Shown piece after piece: positions 24,964 through 60,326 of a stretch of DNA of 64,000 bases. The translations under genes were made by a program, and so were the position numbers. Position 1 is the first letter of the stretch. The number at the start of each line of letters is the position of its first letter. Source of the DNA: Flectonema sp. DT1601 (taxonomy: Eukaryota); contig OZ025796.1 in assembly GCA_964019425.1 (NCBI GenBank), forward strand, positions 930,001 through 994,000. Direction: 5' to 3'. A model generated the notes under the pieces. That model searched no databases and was not told the origin of the DNA. It saw only the letters and a list, made by a program, of their open reading frames with translations.

Positions 24964-25159
24964 ATTTTACCACTGCTACTGTTAAATAGAAAACTATAAG
25001 AAACACTTTCAATTCAAGGAGCATGCTATCGCTTTGAAGAAGCAAAAGTACCTTCTTGGTTAGCTTTGGTACCGCGAGAGGAGCAACGAGAGATGTGTGA
25101 CAATAAACATTCGCTGTATAGACACAACCTCGATATTCGGGTAAAAGGGATAGATGTTG

Positions 25160-27613: not shown

Positions 27614-27678
<65 letters not shown>

Positions 27679-28312
27679 CGCCGAAGCGAAGATGCCGGGA
27701 AGAAACCACATGCTAGTACAGTTCTTTTACTTTTCTTTGTCTGCTGGAATTCTATCTGAGAAAACCGGTAGTCTTTAAAATTGTAAGCCAAGTACAAGTT
27801 GCCTCCTGACGGGTATATTGTGGGTAGTTCGAAAACGTTGCTCTCCAAAATATAACAAGACTCTACTCCACCCGCGTCAGGCGCATCTCTTGTCTTAGCC
27901 CTAGCATGCTACGTTGGAACATTGTCACCAGCCCGGTGGACCAAGTTGTAATTATTGCCCCTGGTTTACTCATCACTCTTCCGTGTGACGGCGGTTATTC
28001 CCTAATAACCTGTTGTATGCTTTACCTAAGTCTTTTACTTTTTTCTTCTTCGCACGCTGTCGGTTTCCACCTTCGACGCAGTCAATCTTGTTCCGCCTTG
28101 GTTGTTTTTGGAAGAGCTAAGCTAAGTGGCAAGGTTTCACTAACAGATCGACTTTTTGTCAGCATCTCAGGCTTCTTTTTGCCGAGGACGTGCGGCTTTC
28201 TTTGAGGTCTCACAGTGACACTTTTAAAAGAAATTATCTATTCCGGTGGGTATAAAGGGGGGGGGGTGGGGGAGGAGGAGGGGGAGGGGACGTGTGAGTA
28301 CACCCACAGATC

Positions 28313-31300
28313 TCAGCAGTCGTCTTTAAGTCTCTTCCCCGGACTCAGGTTGGTCTTCTCTGAGTCCGCGGAACTGTATGGCGATATCTTCTTCTTTGTC
28401 TTCTCGTTCGAGGATGGGCACGACCTCGTCCTCCTGTGTCTTGGTGTACTGTCTGGGTGATCCAAGGCTCTGGAGGCGGTCTCCACTCCGGCGGTCCAAC
28501 ATCTTCGACAGGTCGTTATCTGGCACTTCGTGCATCTGCTCCTGAACCATTTCCGTTGCAACAATCTATGGCAGAAGTCGCATTTGACCCTTGGTCCCTT
28601 TTGCAACGGCGGTGCATGGTCACATGTCGGTCGGGTATCTTCGGTATCGTTTGTGGAGACATCGGAGCTACTTGTCCCCGTCCGGGGTGGGCTGCTCCTT
28701 GCTCTTCTGGTCTTCGGTGTCGGATCTTCTGTAGAGCTGTTATGGCTGTCGAGGTCTAGCGTTCTGGCCACAGGGGGAGTGTGGGTCTCCTTGTCGTATG
28801 CTTGTAACTGCGATGACGGGCTGGACAAGTCGCGTTCCTCCTTGGTGAGGATGTCTACTGGTTCTTCAGAGGTGTCACACACTTCATTGTCGAGGGCGTC
28901 CGCTAGTTCTCCGGAGGCATCCTGTTCTATTTCGGTAAGGATGTCTGCTGGTTGTTCGGCGGTATCGCGCACTTCTTCGGCGAGGGTGTCTGCTAGTTCT
29001 CCGGCGGCATCATGTTCTACTTCGGTAAGAATATCCGCTGGTTCTTCGGAGGCATCGCGTACTTCCCCGGTGAGGGTGTCTGTCTGATCTCCAGGGGCAT
29101 CATATACTTCTTCCTTGAGGGTGTTTACTGTATCTTCGGAGGCATCGTGTTCACCTTTCTCCGGCGGGTCTATGGTTGCAACTATCGTCCTTAGACTGGC
29201 TGACGGCAGGGGACTGCCTTCGGTGGGCAAATCTGTCGGTCTAGTGACTGGTGTGGCGCTGGCCGTGGCATCTTCCAATTCCTGACTTGCATTCGGCGGT
29301 GGGATGTCGGTTTCCTTTGGCTCCGGCTTACTCTGGCCGACATTGGTTGTAACTGCAGTTTCAACAGGTGAGGCGGTCGGCGCTACATTTTCTATCTCCG
29401 TCGTGACCGTCGGGTTCCGTTGGTTATCTACTAGTGGGGGGCCTTCTGAAGTCACTGAGTCTTCTCGGGCCACTTCAGGTGCGGACGTCTTCGGCTTCTT
29501 CACTGATACAGGCTCGTCTTGCGAATCTGAACCAGGGGACCACTGCTTCTTGCTCCTCGGACTGGCCGGTGGCGTTGGGCTTCTAACGGGGTCGGCTATG
29601 GCGGGCGGTGGATGGTCTGCCTCAGCCTTTGGTTTTTTGACCGAGGCAGACTCTCCCTGCGAATCGGAATCTGGGGATCTCGGTTTCTTGGTTAACCGTA
29701 ATCCCAGCTCCCCTTCCAGTTCTGAGGTACGTCTCAACACGTCCATCAGCGAGCAGTAATCTCGAGAGGACACCTCTTCCGCCTTGAACTGCGCACAGTT
29801 GTTGGCGACGTTTGGTGTGTTGAGGAAGCTCCATGTGTCCGGCACAGCCCCCGCCAGTCCCGTCCGTGTTGTCGCACTCCACGTGTTCATATTTCCTCTG
29901 CAACTCCAGGTGGCATTTCTATCCTGTTGACTCATCTTCTGTATCCCCTTGAGGGCAGCATAGTAGGAGGCAAGCCCGAGGTCTGCAGTGTCGAGCGTCG
30001 CACCCCAGCTGGCCGTCAACTTGTGCAGTTGCGTGTCCAACAGGCAGGCGGCCGCCCCCGTCCTCCCAGTGTTCAAGTTCCTATGACTGGCAAAGAATAG
30101 GCACATGCGAGGCGAGTCCTGTTGAGGTCCCCCTGCCATGTGGTCCCACCAGTATAGAGAGGCTTCCAATCGCGAGTTGAAGGCCTTGTACCGGCTTCTG
30201 GTGAACTCGTTTACCATCGAGCTCGCTTCGCGCCAGCAGTCGTACAGACCGGACTTTCGGCCCCTGACTACTGCGTACCATTTGCTGCCCGGCGGTGGAG
30301 CGACTTTGGTATCCCCTGATGGTGGGTTGTACCTCTCGACAAATCGCTGGGCCGACTCGCGGAGGACGAATCTTTGGTGGACGGCGCCTCTGTATTTGTG
30401 CACCTCCCTCTTCGTTTCCTCCCACGTGGTATAGACTCCCGGGGATCTGCCTTCGGCGACTCCGTAGAAGAAAGATGGCTTCCTGTTGGAGGGTGCTAAA
30501 ATCCGTCTTGGATCCTGGGTGGAGGAGGGTAGCTGCTCTCGTCTCAGGTACAGGGCGACGCAGGGCTTTACTTGTGTGACCTTCGACGTGTAGATTCCCT
30601 CGGCAGAATCGTCTTGTTTCAGCCATCCCCCCCTTCCATTTGTCGTATACGACACATAGTGCCCCGAGACCTCGTTTAATCTGACGTGTTGGATCATTCC
30701 AGTCAGGGTGTAGAGGCGGCTCGATGCGTCTATGAAGGATTCTGGAAGGGTGACTTCATCGGGTTTGGTATCTCCGAAATGTCCCTCTTTGAACCCAAGG
30801 AACAGCGAACGGGCTGGCTCGTCTACCGATGTAACGATCTCCGCTGAGCACGATTTACAACTCGGGCAGGTGAAGTCTGTCGGGCTTGTCGTCGTTTCGT
30901 CAAGGGCAGAAGCTGTCTTTTGGTCTGGTTCCAGTCTGAGGATGGGCGTTCTATACCGTACCGTGTGTATGTCTTCGCAGACTTGACACGTGCGGATTTG
31001 CGTTACCGTGGACACGAAGTCGACTGGTGGAGCTCCCGCCTCAACGATTGCTTCGAGCAGCTCTGACAGTGCATGTTCGGCTTCTGATTGTCCCGGACCG
31101 CAGCGTGGTTTCATCCATTCCCATATCTTCTTCGCTGCCAAAACAGACCCCGATCGCTTCAGCTCCCTCAGGGTGCATAAGACACAGTCTGCTGAGTGTT
31201 CCGGCAATTTGTTGCATTCCGGAAGAGGCATGCCCTTGCATAGGCACTGCAGCGCTGCGTTCATGTAGCAGGAATCCCCGAGATTCTGAATCCCCTCCAG

Positions 31301-34300
31301 GCCTACTCCAAAGGGTATGAAGGTCGGAGGGTGTTCTATTGCTGGACTCTCGGGTTTCGAAGTGAGTGACGGCCCTCTCTGTGTCAAGGGCGTACCCGGG
31401 GCCGACTCCGGTTCCTGCCATCGTCCGTCAGAAGTTGTTATTGGGCCAGGAAGGTGCATGACGGCAGAGTCTGGAACAGACAGGGCGGCTTCGTTCGGCG
31501 TTATCTCTCCACCGTGCGTAGCGATTGGATCAGTGGGCGATTCATGCGGCCTCAGCCCGGTCTCCGATATCTCTAAACCTCCGGCAGTGGATTTGGAAGG
31601 GCCAGGGGGCATAGGGACAGCAGCGGCTGGGTCGATCAATATGAATACATTCCGTCCGCCTATTGGCAGTGAAGGATTGCCTGTTTCCATTGTGGGTTCA
31701 ACCGGCGCTCCTTGCGGGCGAAAAGACGGTCTCGGCTCCGGCTCCGGTAACTCTAAACTTCCGGCAATGGATCTGGTTGGGCCCGGAGGAGTAGGGACAG
31801 CGGTGACTGGAGCGGTCTGATCCGTCTCGGTTCGTTTAGCGGCTGGCGAGGAAGTTACGTCTACAGCTGATGCCGGATCAACCGGCGCTTCTAGAGGTCT
31901 GTTGAGTGGCAGTCTCAGCCCGGGCTCCGATACCTCTAAACCTCCGGCGATGGATGTGGTTGGGCCAGGAGGGGTCGGGGCAGCGGTGGCTGGAACGTGC
32001 AACGTGAACTCGTTCGGTCCGACGGCTGGCAAGGAGGCAGCTGGAGCGGACACTGGTGTGGCTGTCGGATCGGGTCCTCCGTCGTCAGTCGTGTACGGTA
32101 ACGGGGTCGGCACTGGTGTTGATTCGTACTCACACGGCTCTCCGTCTTTGTGTAGTGGAATTGCGGCACTCGTAGCGGGTTCTGCGGGCAATCTTTGCGG
32201 ACTAGTCGACGGACTCGGCAAAGGCTCCGATATCCCTAAACCTCCGGCGATGGATATGGTTGGGCCAGGAGGGGTCGGGGCAGCGGTGGCTGGTTCAGTC
32301 GATGTTTTCTCGTTTCTCCCTCCAGCTGGTAAGGAAGCCGTCGGAGCGGACACTGGTGTGGCTGTCGGGTCGGGTCCTCCGTCGTCAGTCGTGTACGGTA
32401 ACGGGGTCGGCACTGGTGTTGATTCGTACTCACACGGCTCTCCGTTTTTGTGTAGTGGAATTGCGACACTCGTAGCGGGTTCTGCGGGCAATCCTTGCGG
32501 ACTAGTCGACGGACTCGGCACAGGCTCCGATATCCCTAAACCTCCGGCGATGGATATGGTTGGGCCAGGAGGGGTCGGGGCAGCGGTGACTGGTTCAGTC
32601 GATGTTTTCTCGTTTCTCCCTCCAGCTGGTAAGGGTGCCATCGGTGCGGACACTGGTGTGGCTGTCGGGTCGGATCCTCCATCGTCAGTCGTGGTCGGTA
32701 ACGGGGCCTGCGCCGGCACTGGTTCGAGCTCTCTCGGCTCTCCGGCTTTGTGTAGTGGAGTTGTGAGGCTCATAGTGGGTTCGGCGGACACCCCTTGCGG
32801 ACTAGTCGAAGGACTCAGCACAGGCTCCGATACCTCTAAACCTCCGGCGGTAGATATGATTGGGCCAGGAGGTGTCGGGGCAGCGGTAGTTGGATCAAAC
32901 GATGCGGTCTCGTTCCGTCCTTCGGTTGACAGGGTAGCGGCTGGAACGGACACCGATGTAGCTATCGGAACGGGTCCTCCGTCGTCAGTCGTGGTCGGTT
33001 GCGGGGCCGGCACTGGTGTCGATTCGAACTCCCTCGGCACTCCAGCTTTGTGTTGTGGAGTTACTAGACTCGTTGCGGGTTCCTCTGGCTTCGTGGCCGG
33101 CCTGGTAACTGTATCCCCCTCGGGTTCCGCTGACCGGCCGATCCCTCCGGCATCCGGTGTGGTTGGGTCTGGAGTTGGATCCATAGGTTGTGGGGTCGAT
33201 GCGGACAATGACACGTCATCGGATGTGCTCGGTGCAGGCGGCATGTGTGGCGTGTGCGGCTTACTAGCGGATAACGCTGCCTGGTGTATGAGCGATGCTC
33301 CTCTTGCCCTGAGGGCTTCTGCAGTGCAGACCACCACTTGGGTTGAGACCCTCCTGGCATACAGGCCTGCAACCTCCCGTAGGGGTACTGTTGTGGCAAT
33401 GGCTCGCAGCTGCGACAGTCGGCTCAGGGTCCTCACAGCTTGTGGGCCTAAACCTCCATAGACTTCAAGTGCAATCGGGGAAAAGTTTAATCCGAACTTT
33501 GCACATAGGGCCGAGTATTTGCCTGACTTTGCGGCTTCTGCTTCACTGGCTGCTTGTCCCGGCTTGTTGTAGTTTCTAGAAGCCCCCGGGTTGACGATCG
33601 TCACGTCAAAGGCCCGCCCGACCCCCTCGTTCAACCCTTGCGGACAGTACCAATCTGCGGGTCGCTGCTTGTTGTATCCAACGAGGTATTTGGGTTCCCT
33701 CATCGTTGCCAAGCCCGCCGAACGACAGATGCCGATAAACTCTTCCCTTACTTTATCATGCCTGCGGTGGATATCCCCTCCGTCGATGCATACAGAGGCG
33801 TGGTACCCGAATGCGTCCTGCGTCTTCTTGCAGGCACGGCAGGCCTCATCCTCTGAGAACAGGGCTGTCCCGAGACGTAATCCGCAGGCGATACGGAATA
33901 TGTCGGAGCCTATGTAGCACTCCTCATCTGGACATTGTAACCACGCGCTTGCTTTCGGCATGGTGAGAGACAAGAGTCTCTTCTTGTCGGTTGGTGCCGC
34001 GTCTTCCAGCAACTTATCTCGCGCGACCTGGTCTAGTCTGGCCGAGGTAAGTCGTTGTGGGTGGTATGTGCCCTCCAGCTTTAGGCTTGCCGGCAGCACC
34101 TTGTTCAGCGCCTCTTGGATCTGCGCACCTAGGCTACATTTGTAGTCCCGCCAAAGGCTAACACAGGTATCCTTTACTAGTCCTAGCGAACCTAACAGGG
34201 CAGCATTCCTGTGCTTTGTACATGAACGGAGGCCGAGTCCGCCCATCCGCGTGGGGAGCTGTGCCTGGGTCCATCTCGAGCCTTCCAGGCCCTGTCCTAG

Positions 34301-37300
34301 CACCTCCGAGGCCGCCCATTTGACTACTTCGTCAACCTTCTGCAGCTGTTCTGTTATATCAAACGAGCAACTCCGCATCAGGTGTGTGACCTCACAGAAG
34401 CCCGAACACTGTCTTAGAAGGACAAGGGCTGTCTGTCTGTCTTCCACGCCTGCGATCAGCTGGGCCTTGTCTTGCAGCCTACTGACCTTCTGTGCTACGA
34501 AGCTCTGAACGTGGGCGATCGATCCGAAAGGTGACCCCAGGAAGTCTCCATTATAGAGGGGGCTCCCCATGCCTTCCAATCCCCAGCCAGACGGGAGCTC
34601 GACTGGGTTCTCCTGTAAGACGTACGTCTGGCACTTGGCAGGTCTGAGGCTCAGTCCAATCTTTGCCGATTCCCTATCCAGGGTGCGTAGGGCTTGATCC
34701 ACTTGCTCTAATGATCCTGCGATCAATCCATCGTCCAGGTAGAAGCAGGCGAACTCCGGGCTGGTTTTCAACACCTCCACAAGTACTGGTTTCAAGGCCA
34801 ATGAGAACAGCATCGGTCCCAATGGGTCCCCTTGTTGTGCACCCTCAGCGGAGGACAGGGCGTGTTTGCCAAATAGTAACCACGACTGTCTACCGTAGCA
34901 CCACCGCACCCAGTTCTCGAGCTGCGAGCCCGTCGTTGCTTCGATGAATGCTCCACGATGGACGCAGTTGAAAGCGTTCGAGAAGTCTATTTTGACGAAG
35001 ACTTTCTCTGCCCCCCAGTTTTTGGACCTAAACTCATGCAGTGCATGGATGGCCGCTTCTGTCCCCCCTGGTACTGCTACACCAAGTTGGCACACTTGCA
35101 TAAGGTGGACTTTGGCTTCCCGTGCAAATTGGCGGCAGAGGTGTTTCGCCGTCAGTCTCCTCCAGGTTTCACCCACCGCGATTGGACGATATTCCCCTGG
35201 TCTGCCTTCTTTCTCTATGGCGGTCAGGTTTGCTCCTGCCATGAGAGGGGCGATGGTGCTTGGGGCTCGGCCATTTGCCAGGAGCTTCACTACTTTTGTT
35301 AAAGAGGCCAGAAGTCCAGGGACCTCCCCCCGGTCTACCGCATCTTTGAGATGTTGTGGTGCGAGACCTGAGGGACCCCCACTCGAGCCCCTGTGAAAGG
35401 ACCGTAGGCAAGATAGTACCGTCTCCTCATCTACCGTGGATTCGGGGCCGGTGCCTTCCTGGTACTCTCCTGACTTCGGCGGGTGCAGAGTCTTTAGTTT
35501 TTCCAGCACTTCATCCGAGTGTTCTGCCGGAGGTGGTGAGCTCAAAGCTGAGATCGCCTGCGATATGCGGCCCTCTCTTACCAGTTCGGTTGCCCTCCGA
35601 TTTCTTGATTTCTGGGACGGCGCCACTTTTGTCTGGATCTGGGTACTCCCGGTCGCATTTGCCGCCCATAGTACCATGAAGTTGCCCTTTGACCATGCCG
35701 TCAGGTCCTCGATCGCGCCGTTCAAGGCTGATTCAGTCATCCGTCCTCCCTTTCTTCGTACTCTTCTCAGGGTACAGACTGGTAGCATTAGTAGCAGCCG
35801 CCAGGCTTGGTCGTTATTTAAGTCTGCTACCAGATCCGACGTCAGCTTCAGCGCTTTCGCGAAGTGGTGCAGTAGGGGTACTGGAATCACCTTCAGTAGG
35901 GGCCTCCTCCGAGTGGCGATGGTTTCGAGGTCCGGCAGGTCTTGTGTCGATAGAGCCATCTCCTTGAACCCCTTGTAGGCGTCATCTAATTCCTTGGATT
36001 CTAGCTTTTCTCTGCAGGATTGGTGCATGGGTTGTGTCATTCCAATTACCAATCGGCAGACTGGGCACTCCCGTAGGTTGAGTCTGGAGAGGTGACTGTG
36101 TGTCAGGGGGTTCCCACTGAAAGCGTGCTCTTGCGCGTGCTGGAGCAGCTCCGTCCATGACGGGAACGCCGCCTTGTGTCTATCGCATTCCGGTTGTGGA
36201 CACGTAAGTGAGACATCCTTTGGGCTGGGCGGATGTGGTAGCAAGGGACCTGCTGTTTCCGCGGTATTCATTCTGCCTGTCTGCAGGATCAGGAGAGGCC
36301 TTGCTTTATTGAGGAGGGATGTTAGCTTTTCCGGTGCCACTACGACGGGGTCGTAATGGCTCCCCTGCAAGGTGAGTGCGATCACATGGCCCGGGGTTGT
36401 CCCGTTCCTTCCTGACACCACTAGTTCTTCCTTTCCAACGAACAGAAGGAAGCTGCACTTCAGATCGTCAGCCATGGCTTGTAAGGCCAGTGCGTCACCC
36501 CACGCCTTGTCTGTTCTGAGCGTATTGAGGTATGCTTCCATCTCTGTGTCTGATGAAAAGCATTGGTTGAACGCATCTTGGCTCTTCTCAATAAAGTCAG
36601 CCGTCCTCTGTCGTAGCTCTTTGTGCTTGTTATTCCAACTCGTGCCATGGCAAACGCTTCTGAATAGGCAATTCCCGTCCCCTTCCACTCTTTCTACGCG
36701 TACGCCTTCTCTGTCCAACACGGTGGCTTGTGGGCTCGTGAGTGGGACTAGGAGTGACTGCTGAAAAGGTAGGAGGTCCTTGCACTTGGTGTGTACCCCC
36801 TTGCCGATGCCACAGAGTGTCCAACAAATAGTACAGATTGTTTTGTTGAACCTTCTTGCGATTTCCTCCGTCACCGTTCCCTTGTGCGCCCCTCTCATGT
36901 GTTGGTTCAGGTGGTAGACGATGGTCTTGGCCCGCGTCTTGCAGCCATCCACGGGGCATTCCGGAGTGTCAGCACCTCCTGCGAAGTCTCGAGGGCCCGC
37001 ATACCGTGGTTTCTTCGGCTTGGGTCTCGTCTGGCGTTCCCTCGAGAGCTTCCGCAGCCATCGTTCCCATCTCTTGACCCGTTTCCGGTTCACGCGGTGA
37101 CTCGGTCTGGTCGTCAAGGCCCTCATCTCGTGATGAAGGGGTGGCTCCGACGGGTGTGTCATTCCTTCCGGTGTCGTTCTCCAGATTGTTTGCCACTGTG
37201 GGCCCGGCGTCCAATCATGTGGCGTGTCCGCTGTAGGTGGTATCGGATGCCCTGTCGGCGGTTCTGAGCCATGTGTGTACGGGGGCAGCGTTCTGTAATG

Positions 37301-37807
37301 GTGTACGAGTGTCTCCGGTCCCAAGTGAGAGCTGTTATTCGAGAATTGTAGTGGTGCAGAGCTTCCGCCACAGTTGAGAAGAGGGGCCAACAGCCACAAG
37401 ACTACCTGCAGAAAACCCGGAACATCTATCCATCCGCGTGCCGAGCGCAATTGAACCGAAGTCCACGGTCCATTGACCGCTGGGTATGGCGCGAGCATCC
37501 CATGGCACCGGGAACTACTTATCCTTCGGGTTTCTGTGGTCGAGTCTGTGCGGTCAGTTGGGACGCCGCTCTTTGTTTCCATGAACGTACCAGGACTGCC
37601 CGGTACCCCTTCCGCCGAGAGAATCCACGGTTGCGGTATAATATTTAACCCGTGGCCTTGTTTGTTGATGCAGCATGTAGATGGCTGATTAGAAGAGTTG
37701 TGGTGCGGTGGATCTGTGGGTGTACAATGAGAGGAAAGCAGGGAGAGGAGTATTGACAGGGAGAGTAAACTGATTGGCGGTAACATTCTACAGGGGTTGA
37801 TTAACAT
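28313..37807 (-). CDS. Retrotransposon polyprotein (~3164 aa): ZnF-OTU-ZnF-RT-CCHC/REL-PT repeats-USP-2xHBD-RNase H-like-acidic repeats-Cys finger
   Basis: RT: GGPSG, YRPIAVGE, QLGV, KIDFSNAFN, GAQQGDPLGP, YLDD, QLPTRMGGLG. REL: CRAC..H...C, RHD, RPAD, FDVT, EAAK..KY, PIALE. OTU: GDGNCLF..HYD. USP: NLGDSCYMN..GHY..DD. First ATG inside the element is at 37807. Confidence 0.92.
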   Translation of the reverse strand: MLINPCRMLPPISLLSLSILLSLLSSHCTPTDPPHHNSSNQPSTCCINKQGHGLNIIPQPWILSAEGVPGSPGTFMETKSGVPTDRTDSTTETRRISSSRCHGMLAPYPAVNGPWTSVQLRSARGWIDVPGFLQVVLWLLAPLLNCGGSSAPLQFSNNSSHLGPETLVHHYRTLPPYTHGSEPPTGHPIPPTADTPHDWTPGPQWQTIWRTTPEGMTHPSEPPLHHEMRALTTRPSHRVNRKRVKRWERWLRKLSRERQTRPKPKKPRYAGPRDFAGGADTPECPVDGCKTRAKTIVYHLNQHMRGAHKGTVTEEIARRFNKTICTICWTLCGIGKGVHTKCKDLLPFQQSLLVPLTSPQATVLDREGVRVERVEGDGNCLFRSVCHGTSWNNKHKELRQRTADFIEKSQDAFNQCFSSDTEMEAYLNTLRTDKAWGDALALQAMADDLKCSFLLFVGKEELVVSGRNGTTPGHVIALTLQGSHYDPVVVAPEKLTSLLNKARPLLILQTGRMNTAETAGPLLPHPPSPKDVSLTCPQPECDRHKAAFPSWTELLQHAQEHAFSGNPLTHSHLSRLNLRECPVCRLVIGMTQPMHQSCREKLESKELDDAYKGFKEMALSTQDLPDLETIATRRRPLLKVIPVPLLHHFAKALKLTSDLVADLNNDQAWRLLLMLPVCTLRRVRRKGGRMTESALNGAIEDLTAWSKGNFMVLWAANATGSTQIQTKVAPSQKSRNRRATELVREGRISQAISALSSPPPAEHSDEVLEKLKTLHPPKSGEYQEGTGPESTVDEETVLSCLRSFHRGSSGGPSGLAPQHLKDAVDRGEVPGLLASLTKVVKLLANGRAPSTIAPLMAGANLTAIEKEGRPGEYRPIAVGETWRRLTAKHLCRQFAREAKVHLMQVCQLGVAVPGGTEAAIHALHEFRSKNWGAEKVFVKIDFSNAFNCVHRGAFIEATTGSQLENWVRWCYGRQSWLLFGKHALSSAEGAQQGDPLGPMLFSLALKPVLVEVLKTSPEFACFYLDDGLIAGSLEQVDQALRTLDRESAKIGLSLRPAKCQTYVLQENPVELPSGWGLEGMGSPLYNGDFLGSPFGSIAHVQSFVAQKVSRLQDKAQLIAGVEDRQTALVLLRQCSGFCEVTHLMRSCSFDITEQLQKVDEVVKWAASEVLGQGLEGSRWTQAQLPTRMGGLGLRSCTKHRNAALLGSLGLVKDTCVSLWRDYKCSLGAQIQEALNKVLPASLKLEGTYHPQRLTSARLDQVARDKLLEDAAPTDKKRLLSLTMPKASAWLQCPDEECYIGSDIFRIACGLRLGTALFSEDEACRACKKTQDAFGYHASVCIDGGDIHRRHDKVREEFIGICRSAGLATMREPKYLVGYNKQRPADWYCPQGLNEGVGRAFDVTIVNPGASRNYNKPGQAASEAEAAKSGKYSALCAKFGLNFSPIALEVYGGLGPQAVRTLSRLSQLRAIATTVPLREVAGLYARRVSTQVVVCTAEALRARGASLIHQAALSASKPHTPHMPPAPSTSDDVSLSASTPQPMDPTPDPTTPDAGGIGRSAEPEGDTVTRPATKPEEPATSLVTPQHKAGVPREFESTPVPAPQPTTTDDGGPVPIATSVSVPAATLSTEGRNETASFDPTTAAPTPPGPIISTAGGLEVSEPVLSPSTSPQGVSAEPTMSLTTPLHKAGEPRELEPVPAQAPLPTTTDDGGSDPTATPVSAPMAPLPAGGRNEKTSTEPVTAAPTPPGPTISIAGGLGISEPVPSPSTSPQGLPAEPATSVAIPLHKNGEPCEYESTPVPTPLPYTTDDGGPDPTATPVSAPTASLPAGGRNEKTSTEPATAAPTPPGPTISIAGGLGISEPLPSPSTSPQRLPAEPATSAAIPLHKDGEPCEYESTPVPTPLPYTTDDGGPDPTATPVSAPAASLPAVGPNEFTLHVPATAAPTPPGPTTSIAGGLEVSEPGLRLPLNRPLEAPVDPASAVDVTSSPAAKRTETDQTAPVTAVPTPPGPTRSIAGSLELPEPEPRPSFRPQGAPVEPTMETGNPSLPIGGRNVFILIDPAAAVPMPPGPSKSTAGGLEISETGLRPHESPTDPIATHGGEITPNEAALSVPDSAVMHLPGPITTSDGRWQEPESAPGTPLTQRGPSLTSKPESPAIEHPPTFIPFGVGLEGIQNLGDSCYMNAALQCLCKGMPLPECNKLPEHSADCVLCTLRELKRSGSVLAAKKIWEWMKPRCGPGQSEAEHALSELLEAIVEAGAPPVDFVSTVTQIRTCQVCEDIHTVRYRTPILRLEPDQKTASALDETTTSPTDFTCPSCKSCSAEIVTSVDEPARSLFLGFKEGHFGDTKPDEVTLPESFIDASSRLYTLTGMIQHVRLNEVSGHYVSYTTNGRGGWLKQDDSAEGIYTSKVTQVKPCVALYLRREQLPSSTQDPRRILAPSNRKPSFFYGVAEGRSPGVYTTWEETKREVHKYRGAVHQRFVLRESAQRFVERYNPPSGDTKVAPPPGSKWYAVVRGRKSGLYDCWREASSMVNEFTRSRYKAFNSRLEASLYWWDHMAGGPQQDSPRMCLFFASHRNLNTGRTGAAACLLDTQLHKLTASWGATLDTADLGLASYYAALKGIQKMSQQDRNATWSCRGNMNTWSATTRTGLAGAVPDTWSFLNTPNVANNCAQFKAEEVSSRDYCSLMDVLRRTSELEGELGLRLTKKPRSPDSDSQGESASVKKPKAEADHPPPAIADPVRSPTPPASPRSKKQWSPGSDSQDEPVSVKKPKTSAPEVAREDSVTSEGPPLVDNQRNPTVTTEIENVAPTASPVETAVTTNVGQSKPEPKETDIPPPNASQELEDATASATPVTRPTDLPTEGSPLPSASLRTIVATIDPPEKGEHDASEDTVNTLKEEVYDAPGDQTDTLTGEVRDASEEPADILTEVEHDAAGELADTLAEEVRDTAEQPADILTEIEQDASGELADALDNEVCDTSEEPVDILTKEERDLSSPSSQLQAYDKETHTPPVARTLDLDSHNSSTEDPTPKTRRARSSPPRTGTSSSDVSTNDTEDTRPTCDHAPPLQKGPRVKCDFCHRLLQRKWFRSRCTKCQITTCRRCWTAGVETASRALDHPDSTPRHRRTRSCPSSNEKTKKKISPYSSADSEKTNLSPGKRLKDDC
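28830..29160 (-). repeat. About seven 45-bp (15-aa) acidic repeats in the retroelement ORF
   Basis: Units EEVYDAPGDQTDTLT / GEVRDASEEPADILT / EVEHDAAGELADTLA and similar. Confidence 0.85.
31560..33070 (-). repeat. 300-bp (100-aa) Pro/Thr-rich tandem repeats plus shorter degenerate units in the retroelement ORF
   Basis: actagtcga recurs at 32201/32501/32801 and cctccggcg at 31941/32241/32541/32841. Confidence 0.9.
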
Positions 37808-38506
37808 ACGGGGAGAGATAAGGAAACTATACAAGTGGTTTATGGCGCCGGAGTCTATAGTGCCCCTTGCGCGACAGGTACCCTTTTTTTTTTTTTTTTT
37901 TTTTTTCTTTACACAAAGCCAAAGGCAGATGGGTAACAAAGTTTTCTAAGTGGGGCTGGGGAGGGAATAAATGAAACAAATAAACAGTAGGAGATATGGG
38001 GTTTCTAAAAGATGAAACGTATTCTAAGAGAACTCGTGGTTATTTATTTAATTAATCTTTTTTTTTTTTTTTTTTTTTTTTTTTCTTTTTAAAAAGTGAT
38101 TTACAGGCACCAGTTCGATCCCCGGTGTGGCTGATTTTTCCGGCGATGGAAGTTTTTTTTGGTTTCTGTTCTTCATGAACTCTAACAAAATCAAATAATA
38201 ATAATAATAAATAAATAAATATAACAAGGTTTAACTTTTACATTGCCGTAGTCTATCAGCAAAGTTGTTTTTTTTTTTCTGGTCTTGCCTAAATAATCGA
38301 ATTAAAGATTTTTTTTTAAAACAAGTGGTCAAAAGAAAATTTTTAAAATTTTACTACTGAAAAAAAAATATTAAAAAAATAAAGAACTTACGCCACATTT
38401 TAAAGAAAAAAACAAAACAAATGCAATAAATAGCATTTAATCAAAAAAAAACAACAACAAAAAAAAAAAAAAAATGTTGCAAAAGACTAAACCAACTACT
38501 ATAAAA

Positions 38507-41500
38507 CTACTGACTATCAGGAGGGCTGAGAGATAGCATTGTTGAAGTTGGTGATTCTGAAGCAAATCGAAGACGAGTTGGAGATGTTGCGGATGAGTGG
38601 TTCATCAACCTTTCAATCTGTCGTTGTGATAATTTTGTATCCGGTGGTGACGACGGTATAGCCGACAATCCTAGATGCAATCTTTCAACTTCAGTCAAGT
38701 GAGTCGATAAAATGTGATTTGACGTATGCAACGCTGCTGGCAAATGTTCCTTCCCAAGCTGAAGAGACGAGTGTAGATAAAATATATCATTCACCAATGA
38801 TGGTCTGGTTTTGAGTATCCAAGCAAGTCTGTTATCCACATCAACCTTCTCAAGTGGTGATATATCAAAGAGTGATGAAGACTCTAAGATATCAACGTCA
38901 ATAACATTACATTCAACGCTCATGACATCATCTGGATCAGCACAACGAGTTGCTATACCACAAGCTAGTTCTTCAGCACCTTCTTTAGTGTCTGCGAATA
39001 CAGATATTACCATTATGTGTTTGTCTGACTTTACTTTTCCCAGTTCGATGTGTGATTCCGGAATCCCACTTATCTCAGATATTAATTTTTTCGTCGGAAA
39101 CAGTTTCCCATCACTGAGTGTGATTGCTATACCTGGAGACCTAAAACGTTTTTCTAATCTTTGAAGGCAGGCAGCTACGAGTGAACTGTGTTCACAGACC
39201 AACGCAGCAGCCCTGTCGAAATCATCAGACGTTTGCAGGTACGGCAACGTTCCAGTAATTCTGGTTATTAAATCCGATGAGATGAGAACTCTTTGACAAG
39301 CAGAGGACATCTTTTCATCTGATAAGATGATGTTGACCGCGAGATCTCTCATCTCATCCTCATCTGATGAATGCTGTCCAGTAATCCGAGCAAGTAGTCC
39401 ATTGGTAACAATGTTAGTGTCAGTCAATAGCATACTTTTACAAGCATTAACTAAGTCTTTATCTTCTTTGATGACATCAACAGCGGCATTGACAGCTTCT
39501 TGTGACCGTCTTGGAGATGCCTGAGAAGGAATACCAAGAATCCTAGAAACCACATCCTGCTGTAGTACAATCTGCTTACACTGATCAGCTAACTCTGGAT
39601 GAGCTAAAACTTTTGATGCCGCCACGATTATGGCTTCGTCACAATATTCCATTTCACTTATCTTCTCTATGAGGTCCGATTGTTGAGATCTACGTGTCAG
39701 TAATCTCTGACAAGTTCCTTTTAATATATCGTCTTTCAGGATTTCTGTGATGCATTCGACAGCTGCGACATCTCTCTTTCGAATGACGTCCTGTTGATGA
39801 GAAGCAGTCTCATAAAGCTGATGTAGTGATCGCTGTTGATATTCTGATTGTGAATTCTTAACTGAGAGTTCATTAATTGCATCAACAAGACTTTTATTCT
39901 CATCATCAGTTGGGGTTGATTTCTGCAATAGTTCGTACTGTTGCAGTTTGTTGGCTGCTTGAGAGGCATCGTTGCGAATAAACTTTTTCAACTCACAATG
40001 TAGTAAGTCGTCGTCTAATAATATTTGAGCCAGTGAGGCTGCTGCTTCAACAAGATCAGTACCACTGTTGGTTTCCTTTGCTCTTTGATAGTTTGTGAAT
40101 AGTTCTTTGATGGTATCTGATTGCCTTCCAACTGACTCTCTTAACAATGGAGGTGCAATAATACTTGGTGTATCTGATGCTGTACGTACACTGATTGGGG
40201 AAATACTATACTTTGGATCAGCAAAACTTCGAACTGTTGATCCTGTCAGTGGAGTGTTGCTTCTCCTTCGATCAATTTTAGATAGCGTAACATCTGCCAG
40301 TACTTTATCACAAAGGAGTTCATCGACTACTTTATGTGCTGCTTTGCGGAGATCTTCATCAGACTTTGATGAATTCATCGCCATCATATTATACCTTCGG
40401 AATGCTGCCTGTATTGAGCCCATCTTGTCTTGTTGTAGTAGACTACATAGCAGCTCATCATTAAGTATATTCTGTACTACAGAAGTAGCAGCAGCAATTC
40501 TCTTTTTCTCAATTACGGGTGAACGACACCAAGAATCTGATGTATTACTATATTGTACATATCTGGTAAGTGATTTTATAATGTCAAAACCTTCAGTTTC
40601 ACTGAATGATATTTCTTTTGATAATAAATCAGTCAGGAGACTGTCTCGAAGAATTACGTCTACAACTTTCTGTGCTGCTTCCATTTTTATTTCGGGTATG
40701 GTTGAAGTAGTGTTGCCAACCATTGATTTATTTAATACGGTAACGTATTCTGCGATTATCGCTATTCGTTCATCCATTTCACTAACAAGTTCACTACAAA
40801 GAGATGGATCGCGATGAATGATTTTAACCAATGAGTGGACTTTGTTTTCGTAATCTGGGTCGCTTCTATCATTCATGAGATGATCAGAATATGTTTTAGG
40901 TTGAATACTAGTCGATGATGACAATGACATAAGAAGATCTGGATCTTGTTGAATAATGTCAACGAGATCTGAAATTATAAGTTCACGACCAGGAGAATCA
41001 CGATTGCTATTTATATACCTGCCGAATGCCTCACGTCGTGGATCATCATCAGGAGGAAGTTCTATTTCTGAAGGAGTATTCTTAACAACTTCATACAGCA
41101 ATGATAACAGTAACGAATCCTTCTTAAGAATCTTAATCAGTGAAGAGGTAGTTTCGTAATTACTGTTGTCAAGGTAGGTTTTAAAGACCTTAATTCTATT
41201 ATCACCAAGACTAGTACCTTTCTGAGCCATTTCATAAAGCACTGGGTCAGCTAGTAGGGATACTATGGCAGACTCAGCTGCTTTGTCTCTCTGCTGAAAC
41301 ATCTTTTCTTGTGATGCAATCAAAGCCCACATGCTATTGAGTCTGTGTTGTTGACTAACAGAAGCTTCCTTAGCAAGTTGTTGAGTCTCAATGACCATTT
41401 CATTATATTTGTGTTCATCAGGACAACTTTCACAAATATTAAAATATTCCCTCAACGATCCAGGTAATGTATCCTTTGGTCGTTGAGAAGAAGTTTGTTG

Positions 41501-44500
41501 AACTCGTCTCTCAGCTGCTTCAATGGAGGCTACAGAAGTAAGGATTGCTTCTTCTTGTTTTTTGAGAAACCTTTCAGCTGTATGTAACTCTCTACGGAGT
41601 TCGTTACACTGATGACATTCAATTTTTGACTGCAATTCAGCAATCTCTTTCTTTGCATCTTCTTCTCTGGCTGCAGCATCCTGAACAAGTTTGAGAAGCC
41701 CATCGGCTGATCGCTCCGCGTGATTTCTTTGAGTTGTTGTTTCTGCGAGTTGATTGAGTAAGCCATTAATATCTTGATCACTTTGTAGATCACATGTGAC
41801 GTATTTATTAACACAGATTGGTTTTCTTGGACTACCCGGCTGTACAATCCTACCACTATGATCAACCATAGACATAGAATAACTTTCCAAGGGCGTCATA
41901 TATGTACATGCTTCTGCTGTTGTCATCTGAACTGTAGACGTAGAAGCAACAGTACTTTCAGTGATAGTAGTTTGACTGCTGTTGTTAACGGCTATGGATG
42001 ATCTTTTAAATGGTGAACGAGGTCCTTCAACATGACTATTCATTGTTGTGTAGTGATCACTACAAACTAAAGAATGTATTGACGGAACTGGACAACTGTC
42101 CATTCTACTCTCTGACAACTCACTAATGTGAATCTCATCAATGAAGCTGCTGTGATCATACGCAGAACCTGAAATATCAATTTCTGTATAACTCGCTACC
42201 TCTCTCTTTGGATAGAGAAAGATTGGATCCCAAGACGGTAGTACGTGAGGTTCTAGTTTGTCTTCCCATAAACAATTTGGATAACATTCGTCTTGAGTTT
42301 GATCGCTGCTGGAATCCAAAGAGAATTCATCTTCAAAACGAGTTTCAAAATTTGAATTTCGAATCCCCTGCTGAGGTAACGGTGGTAGTGTTGGTGATAT
42401 CTCATGGTCGAGTTCTTCTCCTGCTAGATCTCCACCGTCACATGCAGTTCCACCTTCGAGTGCTTTAAACTCAGCAAGATAACTGTCAGTAAAGTTTTTT
42501 AGAGACGTTCCCCCTTTGACTATCGAACCTTTTTTTGTTAATGGTGCCAGTTGGGATGCTATTTTCAATACTTTTCGAGGTGCTCGTCGACGCGGTGATG
42601 AAAACCCGCTGCGACTACTGGCTGCGCTACCGAAAGACGCTGCCAGGATGTCATCAGCTGTACCGAAACTGTTGTCAAACATCGATTCCTTTGCTAATGG
42701 TTCGCGTTCTTTTTGAATACTCAACGATGAGTTTAGTTGTTTTTGTTTTCTCTCTCTACGAGTTTGAAGTCTCTTTAAGACTGTTTTCTGAACTCCTGTC
42801 TGCGCTCCACTATGTTTTGGACTTCCCTCATCATTGTCATTGTCATCACTACAAACAGAATGTGTTGGGGTTCGTAAAATAGGCGTCCTTATGACACTCG
42901 TCCCTCCTTTATGACTAGTGTCTCTAGACCTTTCAGTAAAAGCAATAGATGACATGCTTATTGTTATCTTTTCATTACCATCACTTCGTACGATTACTTC
43001 ACAACAGCCTCCTATTACAGACTCAAGATTCGGAAGGATACCAGAAAAGACTTTATCACGTGGAACTGAATTAGGGGTATCAGCGCACCTAATGACAACA
43101 GAGAATAAAACAGGTACTGAACCAATGTGTTGTGTTAATTCAGTAAAACATTCAACGTATTCTGAATTCGATAGGATTATTTTACTATCTTGCAATTCTG
43201 GTACTGAGAACCATGATGAACCCGAATTGTTACCTCCAGGCAAAGCAGATACTACTTTGCACATTCTCTCTGGTTTACGCTGTAGGACGGGATCGAACTG
43301 GAGGCTTTGGACGGTGTACGAGAAGAATAATCGATTTTTTTGAGCCTCAACATTCAACTTATAGTTGTCAACAGTAATTTGCTTAAGAGAATAACTTCTG
43401 ATGTCATCAACATGAATAGACTTAGATGTGTGCAATACCCCAGTTGATCTATCTACTATTTTAACAACTAAGTGTGAATCAGTAATGTAAGGAATAGTGA
43501 TGTCTTTGTTGATCGTGAAATATGATTTTCCGGATTCAAGTAGGATATAGCTATCCTGAAATAATAATTGTGTGTTTCCAGCTGATGCGAGCAGAGTTAA
43601 AAAGACATCATAGTGCGTACTAAGAGTGCCGTCAGTAATGTCAACAGACGTTAATTTTAGTATCCAAGTTGGAACATTTATATTTCCACGAGCCTGACTC
43701 GTTGATGACAGTCGTTCTAAGAACTCATCTGGTTCAGAAGCGTGAGAAGTTGGAGGTGAAAAAACATCTCTATGAGATGGTGTATTCTGGAGTGAATAAA
43801 CAGGACTAGCTGATTTTCCAATTATCGTGAGAACGATTGTAATAACCGACTCATCAACAGAAGAAATACGACCAACAGGATAAAGTGATATCAACACATC
43901 TCTTGAAAAGCTATCCGTAAGCACTTCATGTAAATCAGTCAATAAAGAAACAGTTGAATACTTTACTGATTGGAATCCGTTGGTAGAGTAATCAACTTCA
44001 ATTTGATAATATAAAAAGTCTGTCGGGACATTATCGAGAGATATGACTTCATCTACAGTTCTAAATGTGTAACTGTTATTAAAGATATCAATCTGAACAG
44101 GTGAAATAGTTTTGTTCATGTCTGAATTTGAAAAGCTTACTGACTTCAGAGCTAATGATATATTTCTTCCAGAACCGCAGTCTAATAAAGTTTTCCCAAC
44201 ATCGACGCCTTCATTAGTTTCTACTAATGTTTGTGACACGATTGGATGTTCGTGAAGGAAATTCTCAGATTTCATCTCCCGAACCCCTGGAGCACACACC
44301 ACATGTAATAAAGCCGGGTTCTTATCAAGAAGTACGGTCATTTTTTCAGAAATCGTGTCTACTCCAGATTTGCAATCCAGAAGTATCTTTTTTTCAATTT
44401 TTTGATATCCAGTACTAACAACATTCCCAAGGTGTAGAACAGACCATCTAAGATGAATATGCTTTGAGCTACTGGAGTTTATATCAATAGTAATGGGTTG

Positions 44501-57530: not shown

Positions 57531-59748
57531 TTCATTCCAGTTAAATAATAAATCGGATCCATCAATTGGTCTATTTCAAAAGAACTGATTATGTTTAGTT
57601 AGTTAGTTAGCAAAATACAAACTGATGACTACGAGGGGTCTGGGTAGCCCGCATCAGTAAGGACCCAATCGCGAAGATTGTAGTTTCATAGTATTGGCTG
57701 GAAGTGATCGACTTCCAGCCTCCACCTTGCCCAGAGGCTAACAGGTTGTAAACAACTAAAGAAAATAAAAAAGAAACGATCTGGGAGTGGGGGGAAGGTG
57801 AAAAAAAATAAAAAATCTTCTTTCTTTCATATACATCTTTCTTTATAATACGACCACATGTGCCATATGCCCACACTCCACGAAAGAAAATAGAAAACCC
57901 CGGAACAGTACCGAGGATCGTTCACCCCCAGTTGTCCAAAGCATTATAAGTGTACTGTGGGCTTACCGAAAAGCTTTAGAAATGTACCACAAAAGATTTA
58001 GGCAGCACATAGCCATATCACTCAGCAAGAAATGAAAACCAAAAGGATCAGGTAAGATGACAGTCAGTTTAAGGTCATAACTGCGCCGGACCTGAGTTTA
58101 AGCAACTCTCTTTGCGAGCATTACTCAAGTACAAAGAAGGCAATGGCGAATCCAAAGCCAAGGAAAGTATTTTTTCTCTTTCTTTTTTTTTTTTTTTCCA
58201 TTTTCTTTTTTATTGCGCATTGGGAAAAAGTTATGAACAAGGGAAAAATTAGTTTTAAGCATATTTATATAAAGACATAAATATATGTATTGTATCAAAG
58301 TTAATTAATTTAAATAATTAGTAATTTGTGATGCAGTGACTAAAGTGAACAAGGGGGAATTAAAAAAGAAAACGAGAGGAAAAACAACAAAGTACGTGTG
58401 AGAAGTTGACCGATTAAATTCTTTTATTTTATTTTATTTTATTTTATTTTTCTCCCCTGGAAAAAAAAAAAAAAAAAAAAAAAAGCGAGAAAAAAGAAGT
58501 CGAAACGCCTAACACTAACAATACACGTACCCAGAATCGTCAGCACCAAGTACAGTAAGGGGTGAGACAGTAGGTGTATGAATAACGAGCTAAAAACAAG
58601 CTGCAAAGGTCCCTAGCCCACAGGAGCTGGTTCCAACCGATGATGAAATGATAAAAAGATTCAAATCAAGAGCGCTGTGTTGCAGCAACGTTCTTTTTTA
58701 TTTTATTTTATTTTTATTTTTATTTTTTTTTTTTTTTTTGCCTGCATAGCTTCGCCTGAAATAGTAATGGAATAGTAATGAAATAGTAAACAAGCTCCCC
58801 AAGGGCTTTAACGTAAGTTTTTTTTTTTTTTTTTTAATAGAATTCAAGAAATCCAAGTTTTCATAAATTACACACAAGACTACATCAACAGTAATGTATT
58901 TCCGTGTTACCTAAAAGGAACCGAACATCTAAGTTAACGATCAGTAAACAATGTACTTGGTAATAATTGAGTTAAATAGGAAAAAATATAAAAAAAAATA
59001 TTTTTGATATTAAAAAAATAAACACAACTAATATATTGTATCATAAGAACCTAAAAGAATAATTTGACCACCTATGGATACCGTGACCATGCTCAACCTA
59101 ACCTTTAAGGTAACTATCAGCTTCGAGAGTAAGCGCCTCTATTCTATAGGAGAGAGGCAGGATAATAGTTTGAGCAAAAATATGTACTGGATCAAAGGGG
59201 AGAGGGAGGAGGGAAAGAACGAAATCTTCCGTATTTAATGTAAAGAAAAAGCACTTGGTGTCCTTGTGAGATGCCACATCAGTTATTGGAAATCTATAAG
59301 TAATATTTCACACAGATGAGATCTGCTTTACCAAATTCTGATCCGCGAACTACGTTGGTAAGTATAGAATTCAAAAGGACAGTTAATATATATCAGAAAT
59401 ATGATTGTCTCCGAGAATGTAACTACCCACTTTACAAAAAAAAAAAAAAAAAAAAAACATGCGAATACGAAAACAAGATCACGAAGATGGCAGGTTGTTT
59501 CCAAACCAAGGGATCTTCAATCTTTGCTCGATAGATAGATAGATAGATAAGGAAGTCCAATACATTGCGTACTGTGCATCGCTGATACAGCAAACTAGGG
59601 AGCATCGGGTTAACTCCCTAGAGCTACGAGGCAACAGCAACGTAATTAGACCCAATCTTATTAGGATTGTTTTATTATAGCTTCGGCTGACGGGGCATAA
59701 TGAACACAGTATGCCTATTGTCAGCTTTCCACCTTGTCCGATTGTTGT

Positions 59749-59906
59749 CGGGTATATTGTGGGTAGTTCGAAAACGTTGCGCTCCAAAATATAACAAGAC
59801 TCTACTCCACCCGCGTCAGGCGCATCTCTTGTCTTAGCCCTAGCATGCTACGTTGGAACATTGTCACCAGCCCGGTGGACCAAGTTGTAATTATTGCCCC
59901 TGGTTT
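59749..59906 (-). mobile_element. Internal 3'-UTR fragment of the CRE-like element
   Basis: Matches 27810-27967 with one substitution; lacks the terminal 131 nt and the tail. Confidence 0.9.
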
Positions 59907-59976: not shown

Positions 59977-59977
<1 letters not shown>

Positions 59978-60017
<40 letters not shown>

Positions 60018-60326
60018 CGCCGAAGCGAAGATGCCGGGAAGAAACCACATGCTAGTACAGTTCTTTTACTTTTCTTTGTCTGCTGGAATTCTATCTGAGA
60101 AAACCGGTAGTCTTTAAAATTGTAAGCCAAGTACAAGTTGCCTCCTGACGGGTATATTGTGGGTAGTTCGAAAACGTTGCGCTCCAAAATATAACAAGAC
60201 TCTACTCCACCCGCGTCAGGCGCATCTCTTGTCTTAGCCCTAGCATGCTACGTTGGAACATTGTCACCAGCCCGGTGGACCAAGTTGTAATTATTGCCCC
60301 TGGTTTACTCATCACTCTTCCGTGTG
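59978..60326 (-). mobile_element. 5'-truncated copy of the CRE-like element with a 40-nt poly(A) tail
   Basis: 60018-60326 matches 27679-27987 with one substitution; T40 at 59978-60017 and T8 at 60327-60334. Confidence 0.93.

Follow-up and report, generated by a model that had tools for sequence, protein, structure and literature searches.

The window analysed here, a stretch of 64,000 nucleotides from Flectonema sp. DT1601 with no ambiguous bases, carries an intact non-LTR retrotransposon that has one single ORF and encodes a restriction-like endonuclease (RLE). The element shows the hallmarks of RLE-type non-LTR elements, namely a 3′ poly(A), no LTRs and 5′-truncated copies, and differs from the remaining window in GC content (0.56 vs 0.38). 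Its features are as follows.

27679..37883, minus strand: full-length non-LTR retrotransposon of ~10.2 kb, delimited by GC contrast and A-runs at both junctions
28313..37945, minus strand: single ORF in an uninterrupted frame, 3210 aa stop to stop
36974..37807, minus strand: N-terminal leader, aa 47-324, with a basic patch at its end; no Pfam match
36974..36994, minus strand: P-x-D-F-x-G-G motif, aa 318-324, conserved in the clade; self-cleavage predicted to follow the second Gly
36779..36958, minus strand: Cys/His zinc-finger region 1; Cys/His pattern kept in family P0005, no significant Pfam match
36332..36712, minus strand: predicted OTU deubiquitinase domain, C426/H530/D532 (Pfam, PDB sequence matches, alignment)
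36014..36202, minus strand: C2H2-type zinc-finger region 2 (weak zf-C2H2_4 match, E 0.042)
34181..35413, minus strand: reverse transcriptase (RT), catalytic aspartates intact (Pfam, PDB matches, alignment)
33299..33889, minus strand: CCHC finger and RLE, with C1369, C1372, H1382, C1386, RHD 1395-97, E1417, D1431 and D1447
31923..33082, minus strand: tandem repeat of 3.9 x 300 bp (repeat detection), encoding a Pro/Ser/Thr-rich linker
30533..31303, minus strand: predicted USP (peptidase C19) domain, C2226/H2429/D2445-6 (Pfam, PDB sequence matches, alignment)
30335..30478, minus strand: RNase H1 N-terminal RNA:DNA hybrid-binding domain (HBD) 1 (Pfam, fold match)
30146..30286, minus strand: RNase H1 N-terminal HBD 2 (second Pfam stretch; 51% identical to its P0005 counterpart)
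29741..30121, minus strand: possible RNase H-like fold, apparently without the catalytic acids, a lead only (Atlas features)
28844..29146, minus strand: 45/90-bp tandem repeat (repeat detection), encoding an acidic tract
28496..28624, minus strand: C-terminal Cys-rich finger (ZZ_ADA2, E 0.001, under the cut-off)
27679..28312, minus strand: 3′ UTR with a small UUCG hairpin at its end (RNA folding)
27616..27678, minus strand: poly(A) tail of 63 nt adjoining the 3′ UTR
59978..60326, minus strand: 5′-truncated copy, with an A8 run ahead of the element's final 309 nt and an A40 tail (99.7% identity over 349 bp)
59746..59906, minus strand: second 3′ UTR fragment, 161 bp, starting in an A8 run and lacking a poly(A) tail (98.8% identity)

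The 5′ end of the element was placed by inference at the first base beyond an A23 run, and candidate start codons of the ORF lie at 37807, 37786 or 37582. At the other end, the terminal hairpin of the 3′ UTR is present in both the MFE and the centroid structure, the final 321 nt having a z of -1.99. The element is likely to have been active recently; two near-identical, 5′-truncated 3′ ends occur within the window 32 kb away, and the 5′ junctions of all three insertions lie at or adjoin A-runs. When the two junctions were inspected for a target-site duplication, only A-runs were seen on either side of the element. A tRNA search of the window found none, and a search of Rfam gave no match at gathering score; matches at the E-value level at both ends fell below that score and were taken as chance.

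The enzymatic core of the element resembles that of the CRE clade. RVT_1 covers aa 910-1109 (Pfam, E 5e-18), with R2 proteins as the best PDB matches, and the endonuclease reads C-x2-C-x9-H-x3-C-x8-RHD-x19-E-x10-RPAD-x15-D. Compared with the motif of SLACS, CRE and MoTeR, C-x1-3-C-x7-8-H-x3-4-C-x9-10-RHD/N-x19-33-E-x9-21-R/KPD-x12-14-D/E, every residue is present and three spacers differ by one (PMC12857005). The members of the CRE clade (SLACS, CZAR, CRE1/2, MoTeR, FoTeR and Cnl1) likewise combine, in a single ORF, an RT and a CCHC-RHD-E-(R/K)xD endonuclease with zinc fingers, internal repeats and a poly(A) tail (PMC12278014, PMC12857005). However, the element described here adds two predicted deubiquitinases, the HBDs and a C-terminal extension of 1661 aa beyond the endonuclease. 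Also, unlike SLACS, CZAR, CRE1 and CRE2, it resides not in a spliced-leader array but at A-runs in unique intergenic DNA, as judged from the protein-coding ORFs on either side and from the lack of any repeat common to both flanks. Its closest named relatives, auto-annotated 'SLACS 132 kDa protein' of D. papillatum, fall inside its own clade, while P0275 (Porcisia), the sole named trypanosomatid RT retrieved, is the most distant tip of a tree that holds no named CRE references.

Both flanking enzymes are predicted deubiquitinases with intact catalytic residues. The preliminary description had placed an OTU at ~36340-36700 and a USP at ~30540-31300 in one ORF, and these coordinates proved right. 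OTU (PF02338) matches aa 422-498 with E 2.7e-12 and 47.7 bits against a Pfam cut-off of 23.3, UCH/USP (PF00443) matches aa 2218-2448 with E 2.9e-9 and 37.3 bits against 23.9, and the PDB sequence matches are OTUD5, OTUD3 and OTU1 for the former and USP15, USP8 and USP4 for the latter. Alignment bore out the claim of intact catalytic residues, in that the OTU keeps D423, C426, H530 and D532 (Cys at nt 36670, His at nt 36358) and the USP keeps N2221, C2226, H2429 and D2445-2446 (Cys at nt 31270, His at nt 30661). The oxyanion Asp of this OTU, D423, is absent from most relatives. Four Zn-finger cysteines, which form part of the ubiquitin-binding fingers subdomain, are also kept in the USP. The AlphaFold model of the USP is of too low confidence to be informative (pLDDT 43.7).

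This arrangement, in which a predicted deubiquitinase domain flanks the RT-endonuclease core on either side, characterizes a whole lineage. Among 270 de-duplicated RTs, 13 families, including elements of Diplonema papillatum, form one clade (SH-like 0.993; UFBoot 100 in a 44-sequence subset), in trees built with no non-CRE outgroup and with families that probably come from few host assemblies. The order OTU-RT-RLE-USP-2xHBD is found again in the sister family P0005/P0013 (RT 67% and USP 30% identical) and in P0206 (RT 37% identical), and OTU-RT-RLE-USP in the D. papillatum proteins KAJ9439003.1 and KAJ9438409.1. All eight families that could be read at both ends have two deubiquitinases, OTU+USP in five and OTU+OTU in three, and a C-terminal deubiquitinase-like domain occurs in every clade family with a tail above 300 aa (11/11); the median tail over 238 RLE-bearing sequences is 26 aa. 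The ~1650 aa noticed beyond the endonuclease in the preliminary description, 1661 by our count, are matched by extensions kept in relatives. Catalytic Cys and His are both present in 8/8 N-terminal OTUs aligned, in the five clade USPs aligned and in 5/6 C-terminal clade OTUs, that of P0201 being without the Cys box; the P0205 row was left out of this alignment, its OTU seed being mis-bounded. A first metagenome scan found no relative, and a second yielded 80 loci, none of them with a deubiquitinase match in ORFs of at least 300 aa by the clade-seeded domain HMMs, a seeding by which deubiquitinases outside the clade may be under-counted. No description of the lineage and no catalogue entry for its architecture came up in the papers searched.

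Beyond the USP, the two Cauli_VI/RNase H1 N-terminal domains (PF01693, E 2.3e-25) match their profile, and in the model of HBD 1 45 columns superpose on 3BSU with an rmsd of 0.8 A (E 2.9e-3). The next segment may have an RNase H-like fold, as suggested by Atlas feature matches to RVT_3/RNase H (0.90-0.91) and by a beta-beta-beta-alpha order in a low-confidence AlphaFold model (pLDDT 43-44). Pfam, PDB profile, hhalign and fold searches gave no confirmation of it; its hhalign score against one weak RNase H region was no better than shuffles, and the wide fold search returned only Z of 5 or less, taken as noise. Five copies of the segment, aligned to one another only, share no invariant Asp or Glu. 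Oomycete Utopia and plant L1 elements with archaeal-type RNase H also contain RNase H-derived modules, but theirs are active catalytic domains, whereas here there are two HBDs and at most an inactive fold, all C-terminal. Cys clusters like the C-terminal finger occur in 7/10 other clade proteins examined. In the 300-bp repeat, there is no synonymous bias between units, and the linker at that position is only ~45 aa long in P0005. The HBDs, the possible RNase H-like segment, the diglycine motif and the truncated copies at 59746-60326 were absent from the preliminary description.

The leader contains a further conserved element. The pattern P-x-[D/E/A]-[L/M/F]-x-G-G occurs exactly once, 21-138 aa before the OTU, in each of the eight families with enough leader; it was noticed by eye in seven families, only P0069 and P0321 being previously unseen, and the extended pattern was fixed post hoc on all eight. 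By composition, 0.45 matches were expected anywhere; outside the clade, there is one in 257 proteins (265,600 residues). A looser hydrophobic-x-G-G at the same distance from the RT is found in 9/9 clade proteins vs 1/23 outside proteins, a count in which the site taken for P0321 lay inside a zinc finger, its positional equivalent being 138 aa upstream of the OTU. The motif is single-copy and position-fixed in leaders that are otherwise unalignable and whose RTs are only 38-67% identical, and it co-occurs with the N-terminal OTU, the sole deubiquitinase common to all families. Since the families share ancestry, its conservation shows selection, and neither which enzyme acts nor that cleavage happens. 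Its sequence is similar to that of the ubiquitin C-terminus and to the cleavage sites of viral protease/deubiquitinases. No conserved Gly-Gly site lies between RT/RLE and the C-terminal deubiquitinase of the clade proteins. 2A-type skipping was rejected, as the motif departs from the generally known 2A consensus, and a signal peptide or membrane anchor was not favoured, with Kyte-Doolittle peaks in 4/9 leaders and none in that of the window. The hydrophobic stretch of the latter is encoded by a polypyrimidine tract.

Based on these findings, we propose that, in this lineage with two deubiquitinases, the N-terminal OTU on balance probably cuts the polyprotein at the conserved, ubiquitin-mimicking Gly-Gly site. 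The OTU would remove the ~280-aa leader after G324, leaving a mature enzyme that begins at the zinc fingers, akin to polyprotein processing by arterivirus and coronavirus protease/deubiquitinases. The second deubiquitinase, USP here and a second OTU in the sister subclade, may act on host substrates and remove ubiquitin either from the RNP of the element itself or from chromatin and repair factors at the insertion site. Target-primed reverse transcription is the established route of integration for the non-LTR class; here it would proceed at or adjoining A-runs, with the tandem HBDs holding or shielding the RNA:cDNA hybrid. Among the functions that had earlier been suggested for these domains, polyprotein processing gains specific support in the sequence from the Gly-Gly motif, while RNP protection and chromatin remodelling are roles that we infer. 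The viral comparison is a works-like analogy only: EAV PLP2, TYMV PRO and coronavirus papain-like proteases are OTU- or USP-fold enzymes within a polymerase polyprotein, and those of EAV (OTU) and of coronaviruses (USP) cleave their polyproteins at sites matching the ubiquitin C-terminus (PMC5695851). However, they belong to RNA viruses, the homology is limited to the protease folds, and cleavage is shown there and predicted here.

Other explanations of the same architecture have to be weighed. Both domains could be true deubiquitinases acting on host ubiquitin only, with the OTU leaving the polyprotein uncut and the Gly-Gly having some other role, for instance in binding, as an autoinhibitor that mimics the substrate, or as a hinge. 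Such a role has been suggested for the OTU/Ulp1 domains of DNA transposons, Ginger among them (PMC2836005), and for Josephin in Dualen (as cited in bioRxiv 2021.04.23.441226), and the retained Zn-finger cysteines of the USP accord with it; but a single-copy motif fixed in position within unalignable leaders is then left unexplained, and we regard this reading as unlikely, if a serious contender. That the motif is cut instead by the C-terminal deubiquitinase or a host protease seems distinctly improbable: the C-terminal enzyme varies between USP and OTU, while motif and N-terminal OTU are constant, even though the LXGG-cutting coronavirus enzymes are USP-type (PMC5695851) and several weaker hydrophobic-x-G-G matches occur in the repeat linker of the window's protein.

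Largely refuted, and with very little left to commend it, is a reading in which the USP/HBD region would be neutral cargo, would have arisen by nested insertion or by reading through into a gene of the host, or would reflect a chimeric assembly. It could draw on the poor conservation of linkers and tails among relatives and on P0155, a singleton outside the clade in which RT-RLE is fused to a cellular-like USP. Yet the frame runs on without a break, GC stays uniformly high up to the poly(A), the part copied elsewhere is the 3′ UTR, which lies downstream of the USP, and the architecture recurs, with catalytic residues kept, in multi-copy clusters of 14-187 members.

Ubiquitin/SUMO-system proteases have repeatedly been noted in transposons (NeSL, Dualen, Ginger and Helitron), with their function only guessed. 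NeSL and Utopia-1_TSP (Ulp1) and Dualen/RandI (Josephin) are likewise non-LTR elements with an RLE, and have a ubiquitin-like-protein protease placed upstream of the RT, but theirs is one protease only, of other families, and the descriptions consulted mention no C-terminal protease or processing site. Ginger1, Helitron, Mutator and a T. vaginalis transposase-C19 fusion also join OTU, Ulp1 or peptidase C19 to transposition proteins, Ginger1 having OTU or Ulp1 'but not both' (PMC2836005), but these are DNA transposons. Against this background, an undescribed diplonemid non-LTR lineage may, as we tentatively suggest by analogy and with slightly less than even confidence, have converged on the nidovirus strategy, with an OTU-matured giant polyprotein and a second deubiquitinase, obligatory and exchangeable, to disarm a host defence that uses ubiquitin against retrotransposition. 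The lineage provides a candidate for the substrate site and, in the alternation of USP and second OTU, a natural comparison, by which the question is reducible to a cleavage assay, and its members in the model species Diplonema papillatum make in-cell tests feasible. If true, a LINE-like protein would be matured proteolytically by its own enzyme, and this would point to ubiquitin as a source of selection acting on euglenozoan retrotransposons.

The preliminary description had claimed that an OTU and a USP deubiquitinase (DUB) are encoded in one retrotransposon ORF with intact catalytic residues, and this was borne out by Pfam, PDB sequence search and residue reading. The window has no ambiguous bases and holds the following.

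28313-37945, minus strand: frame of 3210 codons with the element's ORF
37883: putative 5′ end of the element, after an A23 run
37826-37786 and 37770-37714, minus strand: pair of polypyrimidine tracts with an AG after each, within the element's 5′ end (by eye)
59978-60326: recurrence of the element's last 349 bp, 99.7% identical
59746-59906: 161-bp piece of the element
59500-59746: non-homologous sequence immediately past the 161-bp fragment, with a short tetranucleotide repeat close to its end
38090-38150: short GC-richer patch about 200 bp upstream of the element, tRNA T-arm-like on the plus strand (by eye)
38507-48550, minus strand: host ORF of 3347 aa with coiled-coil-like stretches, without Pfam match
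22084-24966, minus strand: host gene for a nonsense-mediated decay factor of the Smg8/Smg9 family, close to the element
3306-6658 and 60648-64000: duplication, the copies lying 57.3 kb apart and sharing 99.9% identity over at least 3353 bp, with an identical 500-aa nucleotide-diphospho-sugar transferase ORF

The Pfam scan proposed as a check placed OTU (E 2.7e-12), UCH (2.9e-9) and RVT_1 (5e-18) above the curated cut-offs, together with two Cauli_VI stretches (2.3e-25). In PDB sequence searches, the OTU resembles OTUD5/OTUD3/OTU1 (19 matches, E ≤0.01), the USP resembles USP15/8/4 (38 matches, E ≤0.1), the reverse transcriptase (RT) matches R2 proteins, and the Cauli_VI pair matches RNase H1 hybrid-binding domains (HBDs), the fold of which agrees with the human RNase H1 HBD at 0.8 Å in the confident part of the predicted model. 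The catalytic residues of the OTU (C426/H530/D532) and the USP (C2226/H2429/D2445-6) are present, and the restriction-like endonuclease (RLE) has all residues of the SLACS/CRE/MoTeR motif as given in the available text of PMC12857005, with three spacers off by one. For the segment after the HBD pair, Atlas leads point to a possible, inactive RNase H fold; Pfam, PDB profile, hhalign and fold searches gave no confirmation of it. The 300-bp repeats have no synonymous bias among them and are absent from the related protein P0005, and are therefore read as linker. The polypyrimidine-AG sites are candidate trans-splice acceptors, which would decide the element's start codon.

The GC content is 0.56 inside the element and 0.38 outside. 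At its 3′ end the element has a UTR that closes with a UUCG hairpin, followed by A63. Window self-comparison found both shorter pieces, and 59978-60326 is a near-identical, 5′-truncated copy with its own A40 tail. A-runs occur at all three 5′ junctions, but A/T runs are common locally (47 of at least 7 on the minus strand), so that insertion targeted to A-runs is no more than suggested. All three copies are oriented like the surrounding genes, and the minus strand carries 19 of the 20 ORFs of at least 150 aa outside the element; the remaining one is an antisense frame within a long ORF. In combination with the Diplonema papillatum relatives described below, this strand bias suggests that the host is euglenozoan and diplonemid-like. 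Because the flanks are unique, the insertion site is not a spliced-leader array. The element is RLE-type and CRE-like rather than SLACS in the strict sense. The sequence at 59500-59746 may represent the 3′ terminus of an element that is a variant or non-autonomous. The duplication, about 320 bp from whose left edge the truncated copy lies, is either a segmental tandem duplication of recent origin or an overlap in the assembly; the 38090-38150 patch received no call from ARAGORN or Rfam.

An RT-region search of long proteins gave one match among 7986 candidates, whose 35-member cluster includes the full-length P0005 and P0013, both OTU-RT-USP-2xHBD in order. With OTU-RT-RLE as the query, phmmer matched 15,781 of 1.84 billion representatives, the best 150 of which were used. 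Cluster look-ups on 10 + 10 of the proteins found and two profile searches of long candidates (8/6828 and 71/7995 matched) extended the set to D. papillatum elements that bear the name 'SLACS 132 kDa protein' and to other families. The Pfam scan covered the 35 longer proteins of those best 150 and then 21 and 7 more; the remaining relatives were scanned solely with HMMs for which clade members and three outside proteins served as seeds. Of the 378 sequences (proteins and ORFs from loci), 298 contained an RT of at least 320 aa, and de-duplication reduced these to 270.

In the RT tree, the window's element belongs to a clade of 13 members (support: SH-like 0.993; UFBoot 100 in IQ-TREE on a 44-sequence subset), across which the two-DUB layout is real and conserved. 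OTU precedes RT in 9/9 families with N-terminal coverage (P0321 standing for the P0203 family), and the C-terminal extension is kept by relatives, with a DUB-like domain after the endonuclease in all 11 members with a tail >300 aa. Two DUBs occur in 8/8 families read at both ends, and the suggested search for RT+USP layouts yielded five OTU+USP families (window, P0005, P0206, P0199, P0321), beside three with OTU+OTU (P0173, P0182, P0204); P0050 and P0069 are fragments. The C-terminal-OTU families form a subclade (UFBoot 96), whose C-terminal OTUs cluster separately from the N-terminal ones, and the deeper clade nodes are weak (52, 66), so that either USP or OTU may have come first. HBDs occur in three families (window, P0005, P0206), and P0206 carries an additional USP-like domain that is divergent. 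Several clade families are suggested to share one assembly, which means either a narrow host range or under-sampling of hosts. Of the 257 RTs that fall elsewhere in the tree, many of them fragments, five have one such protease (OTU in P0130, P0228 and P0205; USP in P0155; Ulp1 in P0076) and none has two.

P0281 and P0283, of the P0206 family, have one ORF of 4614-4730 aa with OTU and two each of USP-like, HBD and RNase H-like modules. The 14-member P0205 family, outside the clade, has an OTU after the endonuclease and none N-terminally, possibly an independent gain. RLE-type elements also carry, at the C-terminus, the MLLE domain known from the C-terminal part of poly(A)-binding protein (P0029, P0033) or, at the N-terminus, a Prim-Pol domain that passes the Pfam cut-off (P0030, P0035), and the related RTs P0220, P0256, P0209, P0233 and P0208 carry AAA ATPase plus PHD, PHD, OTU plus PHD, PF02037 (which we take to be SAP) and SET, respectively.

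Proteases in mobile elements are on record, according to the available text of each source, as Ulp1 in NeSL/Utopia (PMC4640811), OTU or Ulp1 'but not both' in Ginger1 and a transposase-C19 fusion (PMC2836005), and Josephin in Dualen (bioRxiv 2021.04.23.441226). CRE features are described in PMC12278014, whose available text has no match for 'protease' or 'OTU', and PMC12857005, with none for 'protease'; the text seen of PMC5348765, PMC9940879 and PMC3417536 holds nothing on a two-DUB architecture. The main text of PMC10161547, as far as available, gives D. papillatum elements by name only and defers rigorous TE analysis, and its supplements may bear on novelty. Full-text literature search, with Repbase and Dfam outside its scope, brought up neither a non-LTR element carrying two DUBs nor an RT+USP layout nor a cleavage site of the kind predicted below; the architecture was not found catalogued in these papers, and the lineage is apparently undescribed.

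A hydrophobic-x-Gly-Gly motif before the first conserved module was first noticed by reading full-length proteins from seven families. It lies within 130 aa upstream of OTU in 9/9 tested (per-protein shuffle probabilities 0.06-0.40), of which P0069 and P0321 alone were unseen beforehand, and in a distance-matched window it occurs in 9/9 of the clade versus 1/23 outside (5/9 versus 3/37 and 2/9 versus 4/63 in two other windows). Glycine-anchored alignment, which reassigned the P0321 site after the short-form counts, gave the longer, post hoc pattern P-x-[D/E/A]-[L/M/F]-x-G-G, found exactly once in each of the 8/8 families whose upstream sequence is long enough, 21-138 aa ahead of OTU in every case, against 0.45 matches in total expected from composition and one among the 265,600 residues of the 257 outside proteins. 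In the ninth family the predicted protein starts at the last four motif residues. The N-terminal leaders of the clade's proteins are otherwise unalignable, and RT identities are 38-67%. Ubiquitin ends in 73-LRGG-76, and polyprotein sites matching this C-terminus are cut by the OTU of EAV and by USP-type enzymes of coronaviruses, as stated in the available part of PMC5695851.

Based on this sequence pattern, we infer that the diglycine motif is a predicted self-cleavage site, most simply cut by the adjacent OTU, the DUB that all families of the clade share. Removal of the leader by the OTU would then be the slightly favoured outcome. Elements of this class integrate by target-primed reverse transcription. 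The tandem HBDs would bind the RNA:cDNA hybrid, and the second DUB would act on the host, its presence counting more than the DUB family to which it belongs.
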